From positions 79,546,001 to 79,610,000 of the forward strand of contig OZ024746.1 in NCBI GenBank assembly GCA_964016885.1: 64,000 nucleotides of DNA, written 5' to 3'. The stretch comes from Eledone cirrhosa (lineage: Eukaryota). The notes beneath the pieces were generated by a model, which worked only from the letters and a program-made list of their open reading frames with translations, was not told where the DNA came from and did no database searches. The translations under genes and the position numbers were made by a program. How positions within the stretch are numbered: position 1 is the first letter of the stretch; every line of letters begins with the position of its first letter. Shown in pieces: positions 4,875 to 63,300 of the stretch.

Positions 4875-5259
4875 ACCATCATCATCATCACCATCATCAT
4901 CGTGATCACGACCATCATCATCGTCGCCATCATCATCATCATCATCATCATCATCGTCGTCATATATCATCATCGTCGCCATCATCATCGTCGCCATCAT
5001 CATCATCATCATCATCATCATCGTCGTCATCTTCATCATAATCATCATAATCATCATAATCATCATTATCATCATCATTGTCGTCGTCTTTGTCGTCAAT
5101 GTCATCATCACCACCACCATCATCACCACCACCATCATCACCATCATCATCATCGTCATCACCACCACCACCATCGTCATCATCATCACCATCATCATCA
5201 TCGTCATCACCACCATCATCATCATCACCACCACCACCACCATCGCCATCATCACCACC

Positions 5260-5293
<34 letters not shown>

Positions 5294-6016
5294 TCACCAC
5301 CATCATCATCACCACCACCAGCATCATCATCACCACCACCACCACCACCACCATCATCATCACCATCATCATCATCATCATCATCACCACCACCACCATC
5401 ATCATCACCACCACCACCACCATCATCATCACCACCACCACCACCATCATCACCACCACCACCACCATCATCATCATCACCACCACCACCATCACCATCA
5501 TCATCACCACCACCACCACCATCATCATCACCACCACCACCATCACCATCATCACCACCACCACCATCATCATCATCACCACCATCATCATCATCACCAC
5601 CACCATCATCATCACCATCATCATCATCATCATCATCATTGCCAACCACCACCACCATCATCATCACCACCACCACCACCATCATCATCACCACCACCAC
5701 CACCATCATCACCACCACCACCACCATCATCATCACCACCACCACCATCATCATCATCACCACCACCACCATCACCATCATCATCACCACCACCACCACC
5801 ATCATCACCACCACCACCATCATCATCATCACCACCACCACCACCATCATCATCATCACCACCACCACCATCACCATCATCATCACCACCACCACCATCA
5901 CCATCATCACCACCACCACCATCATCATCATCACCACCATCATCATCATCATCACCACCATCATCACCACCACCACCACCATCATCATCACCACCACCAC
6001 CATCATCATCATCATC

Positions 6017-6050
<34 letters not shown>

Positions 6051-6139
6051 TCACCACCATCATCACCACCACCACCACCATCATCATCACCACCACCACC
6101 ATCATCATCACCACCACCATCATCATCATCATCATCATT

Positions 6140-6172
<33 letters not shown>

Positions 6173-6185
6173 GTTATCATTATCG
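4875..6185. repeat. ~1.3-kb (CAT/CAC)n trinucleotide array
   Basis: Directly visible; produces the poly-H and poly-P/S pseudo-ORFs. Confidence 0.95.
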
Positions 6186-9212: not shown

Positions 9213-9330
9213 TAACGAAGGAGTTGTGGTAAGGAACCAGATGGAGCATAACGCACCAGAGTACTCAATACTTAGGGTAGTAGCCGTCGAAACGGCTTGA
9301 GCTCTGCCGTCGGGGGTCATACTTTCTCAT
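9213..9330. mobile_element. (TA)n-embedded fold-back family G, rearranged copy
   Basis: Inverted tail joined to forward TAGCCGTCGAAACGGCTTGAGCTCTGCCGTCGGGG. Confidence 0.8.
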
Positions 9331-9405
9331 ATATATATATATATATATATGTATGTATATATATATATATACACACACACATACACACATACACACACAG
9401 ACATT

Positions 9406-15100: not shown

Positions 15101-15152
<52 letters not shown>

Positions 15153-15155
<3 letters not shown>

Positions 15156-15354
15156 CGAGTAGGACCCCGACGGCTGAGCTCAAGCCGTTTCGACGGCTAA
15201 TTCTTTTTTTTTTAGTCCAGAATTAGCCGTCGAAACGGCTTGAGCTCAGCCGTCGGGGTCCTACTCGTTGCTATTACCCACTCTACTACCCTAAGTATTG
15301 AGTACTTTGGTGCGTTATGGTCCATCTGGTTCGTTCCTTACCAGATTTCCTTCG

Positions 15355-15357
<3 letters not shown>
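15153..15357 (+). mobile_element. (TA)n-embedded fold-back family G
   Basis: ~50-bp inverted arms 15154-15204/15219-15269, then an ~88-bp unique tail ending TTCCTTCGTTA. Confidence 0.88.
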
Positions 15358-16183: not shown

Positions 16184-16289
<106 letters not shown>

Positions 16290-16474
16290 GAACAAGTAAG
16301 ACCCCGACGGCTGAACTCAAGCCGTTTCGACGGCTAATTCTGTACGTCGAAACGGCTTGAGCTCAGCCGTCGGGGTCTTACTTGTTCCTATTACCCACTC
16401 TACTACCTAATACCCTAAGTATTGAGTACTTTGGTGCGTTATGGTCCACCTGGTTCCTTACCACATTTCCTTCG

Positions 16475-16477
<3 letters not shown>
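16290..16477 (+). mobile_element. (TA)n-embedded fold-back family G
   Basis: Same palindrome plus tail layout with a different central junction. Confidence 0.88.
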
Positions 16478-22725: not shown

Positions 22726-22787
<62 letters not shown>

Positions 22788-22791
<4 letters not shown>

Positions 22792-23090
22792 AACGAGTAG
22801 GACCCCGACGGCTAATTCTGGAATTAGCCCTCGAAACGGCTTGAGCTCGGCCGTCGGGGTCCTACTCGTTCCTATTACCCTCTCTACTACCCTAAGTATT
22901 GAGTACTTTGGTGCGTTATGGTCCACCTGGTTCCTTACCACATTTTTTCCTTCGTTATATATATATATGAAAATGTATTACCCCGACGGCAGAGCTCAAG
23001 CCGTTTCGACGGCTATTTCTGGACTATTTCAGTCCAGAAATAGCCGTCGAAACGGCTTGAGCTCTGTCGTCGGGGTCATACTTTTTCCTA
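22788..23090. mobile_element. Two adjacent family G copies (22788-22957 and 22968-23090)
   Basis: First has a short inverted arm plus tail; second is a tail-less palindrome centred on CTGGACTATTTCAGTCCAG. Confidence 0.85.
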
Positions 23091-23108
23091 TATATATATA
23101 TATATATA

Positions 23109-24500: not shown

Positions 24501-24503
<3 letters not shown>

Positions 24504-24662
24504 CGAAGGAAGTGTGGTAAGGAACCAGATGGACCATAACGCACCAGAGTACTCAATACGTAGGGTAGTAGAGTGGGTAATAGGAAAGCGTTTAACCCCA
24601 ACGACAGCGCGCAAGCCGCTTCGACGGCTTGCGCTCTGCCGTCAGGGTTAAACACTTTCCTG
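24501..24662 (-). mobile_element. Family G variant, minus orientation
   Basis: Inverted tail TAACGAAGGAAGTGTGGTAAGGAACCAG followed by a palindrome around GCAAGCCGCTTCGACGGCTTGC. Confidence 0.8.
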
Positions 24663-26380: not shown

Positions 26381-27104
26381 CTTTGATAATATGCAGAAAA
26401 TAATCTAATTTTACACCAGAGTGTATTACATTGTATTATTCATTTATTTAATATATATTGCAACTAAATATCCTAATTATTTTATAATAATTGAATAAAC
26501 TTGTTAATTATTAGAAATCTTTCAACCCATTTAACTAACAACATACTCTTGCTTATTTAACACTGACTTTTAACACACCGAATAAAACTTTAGTAACGCT
26601 AGTGTTACTGGTGGTGGTTCTGGCTGTGTAAAAGAGGTGATTAATTAATTAGTACTCCCTACTCTCTCACACATACTCTATATCCATTCCTCTCTTTCTC
26701 TCTCCTCATTCCTTTCCTCCTTTTTCCATTCCTCTCTCTCTCTCTCTCTCTCTCGGTTTCGCTCTTTTTTCTTTCTCTCTCCCTCTCTGATTTACATAAA
26801 TTCTTTTAATTAGAACATTAACGAAGCAAAGTTGTAACAGCGCCGCATCTTTGTTCTATGTTTTGTTGGTTTAGACAACTTGCTGTTTAAAAAGTGTCGG
26901 CGGTTATTAAAATTCAATGTTCTTTGAATAGATTTCACACTTTCCCGGACCTCTCTCTCTTACTGATCTTTCTCAACTCATTTCTCCTCTTCCTCTTCCT
27001 CTTCCTCTTCCTCTTCCTTCTCCTACTGACCCCCTCTTTTCTGAGCCCCTCCTCTGCATCCTCCTCTTTTTAACCCTTCCTCCTCCTTCTAGTTCTCCTC
27101 AGCT

Positions 27105-30674: not shown

Positions 30675-30797
30675 AGTCCAGAAATAGCTGTCGAAACGGC
30701 TTAAGCTCTGCCGTCAGGGTTCTGACTTTTTTCCTATTACCCACTTTACTACCCAAAGTATCGAGTAATCTGGTTCCTTACCACACTTACTTCGTTA
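30675..30797 (+). mobile_element. Family G, single arm plus tail
   Basis: AGTCCAGAAATAGCTGTCGAAACGGCTT...CTTCGTTA. Confidence 0.8.
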
Positions 30798-36622: not shown

Positions 36623-37229
36623 GTCAGGTCACCACTTGGTGCTACTGGTAACATGTATCCCAGTACAACCTGTCTCATGGTCGGGTCGTTGGCGACTAAA
36701 CTGGCAACCCCACAAAGGTTTCTTGGTGAGGAGGGTGACTTTGGACATCCTGCAGGACTAAAAACAAAACCTGTCAAAGGGCAAGGGAGCTCTTAAGAGT
36801 CAATAGCCATCCAAAATCACCGGGAGAGATGACCCCTTAGCCTTTGTCAAGGCAGAATTCTAGGAGAAGGAAAACTCTGATATAACACCTGCAACCCTGA
36901 TGGTATCCAATGATGTTGACTTGTTCTTCTTTTTGGTAAATATCATCTTGGTTAAGAGAGTGGGACTGGCTTTGTGCAGTGCCTTTCCTCACTATAAAAG
37001 CTTCACGGCACAGGCATTGCTTTATATCTGGAGATCTCTCTGCCCTTGTCGTCACATGGTACCATGGGCTCAGCACTATGTGTCAATAATTGTCACAGGT
37101 GTAGTGTTTGTACCAGAGTTTTCAAGTCGCTGGCTGGACTAAAAAGTCACACTCGTTCAGCGCATCGGTAGGGGTTCTACATGGATATAAAGTAGTGGCC
37201 ATACTCGAAAACGAGTTGGCAGCCACCAT
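36621..37229 (+). mobile_element. Family R non-autonomous RTE-tailed element, full length
   Basis: ATGTCAGGTCACC...CTCGAAAACGAGTTGGCAGCCACCAT; 37100-37171 encodes [23 protein letters not shown]. Confidence 0.92.
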
Positions 37230-37392
37230 ATATATATGTATGTATATGTGTATGTATGTGTATATGTATGTATGTATATATGTATGTATATGTATATGTA
37301 TGTGTATGTATGTATGTATGTATGTATGTATGTATGTATGTATGTATGTATGTATGTATGTATGTATGTATGTATGTGTGTATGTATGTATG

Positions 37393-37426
<34 letters not shown>

Positions 37427-39245
37427 TGTATGTATGTATTTATGTATGTATGTATGTGTGTATTTATGTATGTATGTATACATGTATGTATGTGTATATA
37501 TGTATGTATGTATATGTGTATGTATGTGTATGTATGTATGTATGTATATATGTATGTATGTATGTGTATGTATGTATATATGTATGTATGTATGTATATA
37601 TATGTATGTATGTATGTGGATATGTATGTATGTGTATATGTATGTATGTGTATATGTATGTATGTATATATGTATGTATATGTATATGTATGTATGTGTG
37701 TATGTGTGTATATGTATATGTATATATGTGTGTATATGTATGTGTATATGTATATGTATATGTGTATATGTGTGTATGTATGTGTATATATATGTATGTG
37801 TATGTGTATGTGTATATATGTATGTATATGTATGTATGTATGTATATATATGTATGTATGTGTATGTATGTATATGTGTATATGTATATGTATGTATGTG
37901 TATATATGTGTGTGTGTGTGTGTGTATGTATATATATGTGCATGCATGTATGTATATGTATATGTGTGTGTATGTATATGTATATGCATGCATGTATGTA
38001 TGTATATATGTGTGTGTGTATGTGCATGCATGTATGTATGTGTGTATATGTATATATGTATGTATATGTATGTATATGTGTATGTATATGTATGTATGTA
38101 TATGTATATGTATGTATGTATATATATATGTGTATGTGTGTATGTATGTGTATGTATATGTGTATGTATATGTATGTATGTGTGTATGTATATGTATGTA
38201 TGTGTGTGTATATGTATGTATATGTATGTATGTATGTGTATATGTATGTATATGTATGTATGTATGTATATATGTATGTATATGTATGTATATGTGTATA
38301 TGTATGTGTTTATATATATGTATATATGTGTGTATATGTATATGTGTATATATGTGTGTATATATATATATGTATATGTATGTATGTATATGTATATGTG
38401 TATATGTGTATATGTGTATATGTGTGTATGTATATATATATATGTATGTGTATATATGTATATGTGTATATGTATGTATGTGTATGTATGTATATGTGTG
38501 TATGTATATATATGTGTGTATGTGTATATGTGTATGTATATATATGTATGTGTATATATGTATATGTATATATATATATATGTATATATGTATGTATATG
38601 TATATGTGTATGTGTATATATGTATATATATGTATATGTGTATATGTGTGTATATGTGTATGTGTATGTATGTGTATGTATATATGTATATGTGTGTATA
38701 TGTATATATGTATATGTATGTATATGTATATGTGTATGTATATGTATATATATGTGTATATATGTATGTATGTGTATATGTATGTATATGTATATATGTA
38801 TGTATGTGTGTATGTATATATGTATGTATATGTATATATATGTATGTATGTATATATGTATGTATGTATGTATGTATATGTGTATGTATATGTATATGTG
38901 TGTATGTATATGTATATGTGTGTATGTATATATATATATATGTATGTATATATATATATATGTATGTATATGTATATATATGTATGTATGTATGTGTGTA
39001 TGTATGTATATATGTGTGTATATATGTATATGTGTATGTATATGTGTATATATGTATATATGTATGTATATGTGTGTATATATGTATGTATGTGTATGTA
39101 TGTATATGTATGTATGTATGTATGTGTGTATGTATATGTATATATGTATATGTATGTATGTATATGTATGTATATGTATATATGTATGTGTATGTATGTA
39201 TCTGTATGTATATATATGTATGTATATGTATGTATATGTATGTAT
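37230..39245. repeat. ~2-kb (TATG/TA/TG)n alternating purine-pyrimidine array
   Basis: Directly visible. Confidence 0.95.
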
Positions 39246-39855
39246 ATGTCAGGTCACCACTTGGTGCTACTGGTAACATGTATCCCAGTACAACCTGTCT
39301 CATGGTCGGGTCGTTGGCGACTAAACTGGCAACCCCACCAAGGTTTCTTGGTGAGGAGGGTGACTTTGGACATCCTGCAGGACTAAAAACAAAACCTGTC
39401 AAAGGGCAAAGGAGCTCTTAAGAGTCAATGGCCATCCAAAATCAGTGGGAGAGATGACCCCTTAGCCTTTGTCAAGGCAGAATTCTAGGAGAAGGAAAAC
39501 TCTGATATAACACCTGCAACCCTGATGGTATCCAATGATGTTGACTTGTTCTTCTTTTTGGTAAATATCATCTTGGTTAAGAGAGTGGGACTGGCTTTGT
39601 GCAGTGCCTTTGCTCACTATAAAAGCTTCACGGCACAGGCATTGCTTTGTATCTGGAGATCTCTCTGCACTTGTCGTCACATGGTACCAAAGGCAAAGCA
39701 CTATGTGTCAATAATTGTCACAAGTGTAGTGTTTGTACCAGAGTTTTCAAGTCGCTGGCTGGACTAAAAAGTCACTCGTTCAGCGCATCGGTAGGGGTTC
39801 TCCTACATGGATATAAAGTAGTGGCCGTACTCGAAAACGAGTTGGCAGCCACCAT
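39246..39855 (+). mobile_element. Family R element, full length
   Basis: Near-identical to 36621-37229. Confidence 0.92.
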
Positions 39856-40040: not shown

Positions 40041-40435
<395 letters not shown>

Positions 40436-40534
40436 CTGTCGGGGTTATGACTCTTTCCCTATCTCACTCCCCTGTAAAATAATACAAACAGACGTAATAA
40501 TACAGAAAACACATAAATAACACTCATAGACACG

Positions 40535-61532: not shown

Positions 61533-63114
61533 AGAGAGAGAGACAGAGAGAGAGAGAAAGAGAGATAGTTGGAGAGAGAGAGAGAGTGGGAGAAAGAGAG
61601 ATACATGCAGTCTTACTTCCACCCATACATAACATACATACATATTTATGAAAATACTGTATAGGTAGGCAAAACAAATTGCAAGAATAGAGTTGGTAAC
61701 TAAAATCACAGACTTCAGATTCTGTCTCCTCTGAACACTGGAAGAACATTTGTTAACTTTTACATTTACGATTATTAAAAAGTATTCTTGACGCATTTTA
61801 TTTAATTTCAACGTGATGTCTTTTACATCATTTCATTGTTCAAAGGCTTTCCTGGTTGTCTTTATGTCTACGATGGCTGGTTGTGAATAGAGGAAATGTT
61901 ACTGCTATCATTATCAGCTTATGTGACCGTCAGCGTAGGCTAAAATACCTAGTGCTGCTATGTAAAGGTAACTATAAATTATCCGAAAGATGTACGTCTG
62001 TCGAGCCAATTTATCGAATTATCATTGCATGATATGCCTTTAGTAGAAGATTTCTTGATAGATAAACATTGACAAATAAATCTAAATGTATTTCCCATGA
62101 ATCAGCTATAGAATATTTATGATAGCACGCCAATCTCAAAGCCAGACACCAATTAACTGAATTTTGAACTGGAAATCTAGTTATTCAAACTCATATTTTC
62201 TGTATTCCTACACGACAATGTTACAGGAGTACAGGAAAAAATCTCTAGAAGCTATTAGAATATAGATGATTGTAAAATATTCACGCAACATACACGTAAA
62301 TTTTGCAGTATGACAATTATATATAATCAGAAAGAAGCCTCGTTTATTATAAGGAAAATTGGTCATTGAAATATGTTTTTACGCTGCCCACAGATGCAGC
62401 GTTCAAGAAATTGCAGTCATTGACATGAAAAACGTTGAACATACAGACATTTTCAGAAACTTAAAAATTGAGTTAGGATTTCGTTTTATGTTTACAATAT
62501 GTTATTAGGATACGTCTATTGGATGTTTGATTATGTGCCCTGCAGCTATAAGATACATCTTTGATCATAGATCCTAAGAGAATATTTTACTAAAGAAGTC
62601 AATAAATATTCCTCTGTTATGCCTGCACAATGTTGGTTCAAATGGTTGACTCATCTCATTCGCAAAATCTTTCTAATATTCTAGTAAATTAAAATAGAAG
62701 AAAGTGATTTTACTCGTTATTATTGGAAATATGACACTATTGACTAACTACTAACATTCAGTTTTCAATAACTTGGCAGTGATAACAAAAACAACAACTT
62801 CAAATAGTTCTCTACTATTTCAGAACAAACACAATAGAAAATTAATGCATGTTATTTTTAGAAATGTTTCAGATGTTAATCCAAACACAGGGTCATCATC
62901 AATACAACAGTGCTAACAACATCACTTTCGGGGCTCACGGTCTAGAGCAGGTAAAACAGGGTGATAGAAATGCTGTTTATTATTCTCAGCTATATCACGG
63001 CAGTGATTGTTAGCAACAGTAAGAAATGATAGTATGTATATATATATATAGAAAGAGAGAGAGACAGAGAGAGAGAGAAAGAGAGATAGTGAGAGACATA
63101 TTACGATGGTTATA

Positions 63115-63300
63115 TAATTGTTTCTACTTTTGGCACAAGGCCAGCAATTATCCCAGTACATTACTGGTACTTTATTTTATCGACCCCGTAAGGATGAAAG
63201 GCAAAGTAAACCTCGGCGGGATTTGAACTCAGATCGTAAAGGGACGTAACTATGCTGGAAAGCATGGCGTCCGACCCTCTACCGATACTGCCAATCCATT
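63115..63300 (-). mobile_element. SINE family 1
   Basis: Near-identical to 12111-12300. Confidence 0.9.

Follow-up and report, generated by a model that had tools for sequence, protein, structure and literature searches.

The short palindromes of family G in the Eledone cirrhosa genome are almost certainly the 3′ end of an endonuclease-bearing (EN+) Penelope-like element (PLE), and there is strong reason to hold that they were made by twin priming. The orientation of the arms marks each of them as first-strand cDNA extended from the 3′ end of one target strand. The explanation which we consider likely is that each short copy, or stub, consists of two first-strand cDNAs which were begun at two fixed start sites, probably on one RNA, ran off the capped start of this RNA in loop II of a hammerhead ribozyme and were joined head to head.

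Positions are counted from the A of TTAGT as +1 (15214 in the window, the whole analyzed stretch of 64,000 nucleotides). On this scale the outer ends of the arms are fixed at +60 (site B) and +140 (tail end), and the ATG of the parent element is at +232, so that the tail, which lies ahead of it, is 5′ UTR in the parent.

Family G copies in the window and in the genome

The copies in the window sit in (TA)n runs. They are given below with the parts of the 15153 copy, under coordinates, strand (a dot where none is assigned) and description.

15149..15204 (-): inverted arm of the 15153 copy, without tail, from +6 as far as start site B (+60); TAT common with the left (TA)n at the join
15204..15356 (+): the other arm of the 15153 copy, with the tail; a run of 10 T, then +1 up to the tail end (+140), followed by (TA)n
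15211..15216 (+): initiator-like TTTAGT with A at 15214 as +1; putative transcription start and run-off point in hammerhead loop II
15224..15259 (+): type I hammerhead, 3′ half (3′ strand of stem II, GAAA, stem III and its palindromic loop, 3′ strand of stem I)
between 15254 and 15255 (+): predicted hammerhead cleavage in the 15153 copy
15274..15355 (+): tail of about 80 nt, spanning the two presumed RT start sites (+60, +140)
15280..15303 (+): small hairpin with a bulge, 6 nt beyond start site B
9214..9332 (.): 9213 insertion, non-palindromic; 9214-9283 is an inverted arm of tail only, from +70, and 9281-9332 a tail-less arm from +11, joined by a 3-nt overlap
16286..16476 (.): 16290 copy, palindromic stub; from +5 in the arm without tail and from +15 in the tailed one
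22787..22956 (.): 22788 copy, palindromic stub; tailed arm from +7, tail-less arm with internal deletion between two GACGGCT repeats
22965..23091 (.): 22968 copy, tail-less palindrome of subfamily B in the TA run of the 22788 copy
24502..24661 (.): 24501 copy, palindromic stub; left-side tail, arms joined by the 6-nt overlap ACGGCT (+12/+22)
30675..30797 (+): 30675 copy, single tailed arm from +1; internal deletion in the tail
40113..40320 (.): 40113 copy, palindromic stub; discordant arms (10 differences in 49 columns), subfamily-C tail
40434..40462 (+): tail-less short fragment from about +35

An earlier sequence-only reading had listed eight copies, each with its own palindrome and a constant tail end. 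All eight places hold family G sequence, but a palindrome with one tail is present at five only (15153, 16290, 22788, 24501 and 40113): the 22968 copy has a tail on neither arm, the adjoining tail belonging to 22788; at 30675 the inverted arm is missing; and the 9213 insertion has two non-overlapping arms. The tail end is indeed fixed in position, but 40113 carries a subfamily-C tail ending CTCTTTGTTA. The fragment at 40434-40462 is a ninth piece beyond the eight. Matches to CTTCGTTA/TAACGAAG at 26819, 44093 and 63328 were rejected as chance.

The TA run which hosts copy 22968 (22957-22964) flanks copy 22788, and such nested targeting of the flanks of earlier insertions was also seen in loci L013, L164, L219 and L228. 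The two arms of one insertion carry different subfamily haplotypes in +46..+60 at 40113-40320, L218 and L228; two RNAs, a template switch or later conversion are possible readings of these cases. The window also contains a 1.3 kb (CAT)n array (4877-6184), a 2 kb TATG-type array (37228-39249) and a SINE-like dispersed repeat (63110-63300), of which several more lie in the flanks of L013 and L026.

To identify arms, sequences were aligned to 46 naturally occurring long references. The arm sample was drawn from the window, 14 neighbouring tiles, 43 distant tiles, 90 tail-chosen loci (85 without duplicates) and further copies that happened to lie in flanks. Duplicates of identical sequence, arms truncated at the edge of a locus and the whole of locus L243 were left out, and 66 of the 152 two-armed stubs had been selected for a tail. 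The 43 hand-picked 10-kb tiles held 23 insertions, and the number in the microsatellite-rich host genome of 3.0 Gb is put at about 160,000 (95% range 100,000-240,000), a rough figure because the tiles stand at round coordinates and are no random draw. The palindrome family makes up about 0.75% of sampled bases. Exact 25-mer matches of the youngest subfamily number 17,544 genome-wide and those of reversed control patterns 0; the occurrence is far above chance.

The parent element and its hammerhead ribozyme

The parent was recovered by walking upstream from the longer family G copies of the same genome. Its unit of 3530-3807 bp has a 5′ UTR, one ORF and a 3′ UTR of about 1.25 kb which ends in a hammerhead. 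The ORF contains RT and C-terminal GIY-YIG motifs (30 RT-selected copies) with open frames of up to 794 codons, and none of the 30 is intact from the ATG. Ten complete elements were fetched, of which all have an upstream pLTR (partial tandem) and nine an inverted arm; one tail, left or right, is present in all seven full-length insertions with both ends readable. The Pfam search of the parent protein gave no match at E<=1, so that its identity rests on motifs and comparison by eye; a PDB sequence search returned nothing meaningful.

The protein has HSDKTG (DKT in place of DKG), RWR at the place homologous to RWK of the Hydra clade (one conservative change), a CNC-x5-C linker (CxCX5C), no CCHH, a single Cys in the GIY-YIG core, and CNLC and CKH as the CxxC and CxH around the E and N of the endonuclease; by eye its N-terminus is like that of Hydra-1_Obim. 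Craig et al. 2021 (PMC8557442) give as marks of the Hydra clade DKT, RWK, CxCX5C, absence of CCHH, CxxC with CxH and (TA)n preference, together with a length generally below 3 kb, which is a tendency and no strict criterion and which the family G parent exceeds. By these sequence marks the element is assigned to the Hydra clade. Compared with the members described there (Hydra-1_Obim, Penelope-13_HM), the single ORF, C-terminal GIY-YIG, pLTR hammerhead, (TA)n targets and inverted 5′-truncated copy are common; the hammerhead (33-nt loop II, U3-A8 or C3/A8 core, 5-bp stem III), the 3.5-3.8 kb unit with its 1.25 kb 3′ UTR, RWR for RWK and the vast excess of stubs ending at one point are different. 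The tail is 80 nt vs 30-40 in PLEs as far as these are described in the literature covered. Judged from the sequences, family G is classed as a family distinct from Hydra-1_Obim and Penelope-13_HM. A MITE/TIR DNA transposon was rejected, the junction and arm data showing neither inherited TIRs nor fixed internal sequence, and so was a non-LTR retrozyme, as the stubs hold half a ribozyme head to head and the parent has an ORF.

The motif GTCGAAACGG had been read as the 3′ half of a hammerhead belonging to a PLE, and this is borne out: the missing half is present in long copies, and an RT/EN parent with a full hammerhead was recovered. In the long arms (70) the type I hammerhead is complete: its stems I-III pair, loop II measures 33 nt and loop III is palindromic. 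Between subfamilies A, B and C the two strands of stem II have both changed (G-C to A-U, U-A to G-C, U-A to A-U); the subfamily C set was pulled by a pattern fixing the 3′ strand only (67 matches, 10 scored). Subfamilies B and C have the U3-A8 core, a variant reported for PLEs (PMC4209133). The youngest subfamily (A) mostly has a C3/A8 mismatch (45 of 57 arms in a query-biased set, 17 of 26 RT-selected loci), some A arms keeping U3-A8, and the C3/A8 ribozymes are likely to be weakened. Cleavage is predicted after +41. An Rfam scan of the window, which holds half-ribozymes only, showed no hammerhead and only low-complexity miRNA-type matches among the 150 of 480 matches listed.

Some loci hold other palindromes. 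Locus L003 (G000:C2:37982540-37985682, oriented about 1900-2720) has an unrelated second PLE-like palindrome with a compact hammerhead (TTGAGAAG core) of the U3-A8 type with palindromic stem III, and an endonuclease-like C-terminal remnant alongside. L026 (oriented about 1680-1820) holds a diverged sister stub adjoining a family G copy, with tail start and hairpin alike and arms different. Further unrelated short palindromic repeats between TA runs (L017 1660-2100, L030 2630-2990, L032, L058) are probably stubs of further PLE families. Frames at L064 1-3400, adjoining a family G long copy, are presumably those of a Helitron-like Rep/helicase, named by motifs.

Inner ends of the arms and the template RNA

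The inner ends of the arms gather close to +1. Among 216 arms, 197 end at or after -5, 8 between -15 and -6 and 11 further upstream; the first figure is 62 of 65 for the unselected tiles. In the youngest subfamily, of which 4138 of the 17,544 exact matches (24%) reach -7, the edge stands out less. When the base before +1 is not supplied by the partner arm, it is G in 19 of 30 cases vs 32 of 162 elsewhere (p=4e-6), and in 10 of 17 after dropping possibly templated inserts (p=0.001). Back-to-back G/G pairs number 8 among the first 100 G matches, the extra G being possible on both arms. In a sample of 20 G cases inspected by eye, none of them long, the partner accounts for the G in 5 and fails to do so in 14, with 1 ambiguous; in a like sample of 20 C cases, the C is traceable in 16 to the partner or else to a parent which has TCAGT. 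Runs of 4-6 T stand before +1 in 18 of 41 subfamily-A arms vs three T in the parent, which suggests slippage or A addition at the template end. Three subfamilies with an otherwise divergent loop II all retain TAGT or CAGT at +1, and T[T/C]AGT resembles the arthropod initiator TCAKTY. A splice acceptor at TTTAG was considered and rejected, as the arms keep AG and have no common upstream exon.

Untemplated 5′ G is an accepted sign of a reverse-transcribed cap in L1 and SVA (PMC4859970), and the mark of a capped 5′ end would be common to L1 and family G. The arm edge and the excess of G are probably what a capped RNA start would leave, a start predicted here from DNA ends. The Penelope of D. virilis has an internal TATA-less promoter with an initiator in the pLTR (PMC2377424), and family G differs in that its presumed start is inside the ribozyme. 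No run-off signature was found in the Penelope literature, as searched in titles and abstract starts with subscription papers largely outside the scope.

Several counts speak against run-off. The base before +1 genome-wide is G in 2929 matches, A in 567, C in 2812 and T (templated) in 11,236, so that C is as common as G and T commonest. Only 4138 of the T matches reach -7, and many arms therefore end from -1 to -5, which needs several starts or untemplated A addition. Moreover, loop II has weak inner hairpins with ends close to the arm edge, so that pausing is possible. It is accordingly conceivable, though unlikely, that priming is twin but that the arms stop in loop II by RT pausing or by an RNA cut at the hammerhead structure, the G being a terminal-transferase preference. 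By eye, each subfamily can form a weak hairpin in loop II ending near -4..+5; full-length copies ignore +1; and a second, smaller peak of arm ends lies at +41..+44, the stem III base (16 of 373 arms vs a background of 1.08 per position, p=1e-5), which fits run-off from cut RNA or a stem III pause. What weighs against pausing or cutting is that G is enriched at +1 only, that the RT has by then already passed the GC-rich stems I-III, and that long arms pair with long arms: among 32 loci picked because one arm is long, 28 have both arms past -40, when no more than 24% would be expected, which indicates a property of the template and not random pausing.

None of the 10 full-length copies starts at +1, their starts lying at -87 to -1219, and a second template is therefore needed for run-off. 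This, together with the pairing of long arms, leads to the conclusion that stubs and long copies come from different RNAs. Long and full-length copies would be made on a template passing +1, likely a hammerhead-cut circle, as proposed for PLEs in PMC4209133, or a read-through RNA. As a matter of speculation, the ribozyme split in loop II might be completed by the 3′ copy in the same RNA. Hammerhead ribozymes occur in split format.

The RNA source of the stubs can also be read differently. They might be a self-propagating non-autonomous element with its own promoter and start sites, transcribed from +1 and mobilised in trans, with the same joining chemistry and a fresh palindrome per insertion. 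Stubs outnumber long arms about 3:1 in the youngest subfamily and about 30:1 in the unselected tiles, and many haplotypes are present in +46..+60, as such an element would have it. We hold this for improbable: long copies exist for all three subfamilies tested, and the stubs lack the hairpin which follows the tail end in the parent, so that the tail is not easily regenerated from a stub, yet it is present in 145 of 152.

Tails, junctions and the proposed mechanism

Outer ends abut TA runs at 103 of 112 tail ends and 74 of 81 site-B ends (177 of 193 intact ends in all), and TAT is common to the target and both outer ends. In the parent, look-alike bulged hairpins stand 6 nt after site B and 4 nt after the tail end; the pairs of hairpin 1 are kept in about 90-97% of 191 tails without covariation, and thus indicate conservation only. 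Exactly one tail is found in 145 of 152 two-armed stubs (two tails in 4, none in 3) and in 23 of 25 of those in unselected tiles. The seven stubs with zero or two tails, and the 9 of 84 insertions with discordant arms, stand against the proposed model. An origin of the zero- and two-tail insertions from two RNAs found no support, as discordance is not higher among them (n=2 and 3 vs 109 one-tail).

Snap-back at stem II, in which one cDNA folds back and copies itself so that an inverted copy replaces the CUGA half, had been offered as the origin of the palindrome, and it is akin to the self-priming on an antisense template by which head-to-head inverted pLTRs of Adineta vaga and Drosophila virilis Penelope were explained (PMC3846280). 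In its favour, the arms share haplotypes, inverted microhomology of the ribozyme stems serves at some joins (6 nt at 24501), and the tailed arm is the longer one in 28 of 145 stubs. A cDNA folded back on the tailed arm could however contain nothing that this first arm lacks. Of the 145 stubs, 49 have a tail-less arm which extends upstream of the tailed one by 5 nt or more, 23 of them by 15 nt or more, and in 68 the arms are within 4 nt of each other. The excess of longer tail-less arms (49 vs 28) has p=0.02; after removal of overlap the numbers are 44 vs 27 (p=0.06). Eight of the 145 have arms without any overlap, and the extra G can stand on both. In long copies neither arm has lost the CUGA half, and the axis lies in loop II because the arms end there and not through a replacement of this half. 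Since the arms are not subsets of each other, snap-back is largely refuted and remains very improbable.

The view that palindromes are made per insertion stands. There are 135 junction types in 152 insertions, with joins of 1-14 nt overlap, blunt or with a short insert. For 84 insertions with near-complete arms, the mean distance is 0.075 between the arms of one copy and 0.164 to other copies, 40113 being an exception to this likeness. Tail-less arms do not group together (0.164 to each other vs 0.163 to the tailed arms of other copies), and no column separates tailed from tail-less arms at p<0.01. Variants in both arms, described as copy-specific, are mostly subfamily haplotypes common to many arms elsewhere, and haplotypes disagree between arms in 9 of 84 insertions vs 49 in shuffles. 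Homogenisation in place did not hold: 41 major-haplotype insertions have 70 one-arm and 5 both-arm substitutions, three of the five being one recurring haplotype, and as later mutations are one-armed, the arms share a source and not a repair process. An inherited palindrome with MITE-like TIRs, or arms homogenised after insertion, is refuted by the junction diversity and the RT/EN parent in spite of an excess of both-arm substitutions (5 vs 0.9 expected), and has next to no probability.

Twin priming on sense RNA is favoured by the arm statistics over the published reading of the A. vaga and D. virilis elements, which have in common with family G the inverted pLTR and an optional tail on one arm (PMC3846280, PMC2377424). 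The data fit instead the in vitro behaviour of Poseidon PAc of Anolis carolinensis (Frangieh et al. 2024, PMC11167929), whose protein is reported to cleave both target strands and to extend them, with RT beginning at two internal positions on either side of the tail. AT-rich targets, a stem-loop at the start sites and a predicted dimer are also common to both; the PAc start sites are in the ORF, whereas those of family G are both in the 5′ UTR and share TAT with the target. Inverted arms, one-tail coupling and a run-off point are not addressed in the parts of that work covered, which report that no RNA ends at the ribozyme cut site were found. L1 twin priming, as reviewed in PMC4859970, likewise has two target strands priming on one RNA and then joined, but with a non-overlapping inversion and a variable second start; family G has a fixed second start, and its palindromes result from the overlap between the arms.

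The following route may be proposed. An endonuclease would cut both strands in a (TA)n target, and a dimeric protein would start one strand at each site. The internal promoter would start at A+1, so that the 5′ UTR of the mRNA holds both start sites and leaves 60 and 140 nt to copy. Both cDNAs would run off the RNA 5′ end, and host end-joining would trim and join their ends. Tentatively, and as a reading which may well be wrong in part, we suggest that the promoter lies inside the element's own hammerhead, that the RNA with a capped loop-II start holds half a ribozyme and the two RT start sites near this end, that a dimeric RT copies one such RNA twice to give paired strong-stop stubs (over 100,000), and that full-length progeny come only from hammerhead-cut, circular or read-through RNA.

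PMC8557442 and PMC11167929 name as open questions the origin of the inverted, one-side-tailed ends of PLEs and the function of their hammerheads. The layout of the element is already known; the coupling statistics and the cap signature bear on this open mechanism. Family G provides a very large natural read-out, and the model predicts a capped 5′ end at one base, one priming per insertion at each start site, and two classes of template. The family speaks against the self-priming reading of PMC3846280, and a palindrome family which looks like MITEs can consist of abortive retrotransposition products. Extension of both cut strands on one RNA up to its likely capped start would explain the long-puzzling mirror-image ends of PLEs. 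If the proposal is true, the inverted repeat with a single tail would be a general footprint of coupled twin priming in PLEs, and the ribozyme would be a switch between abortive and productive transposition.
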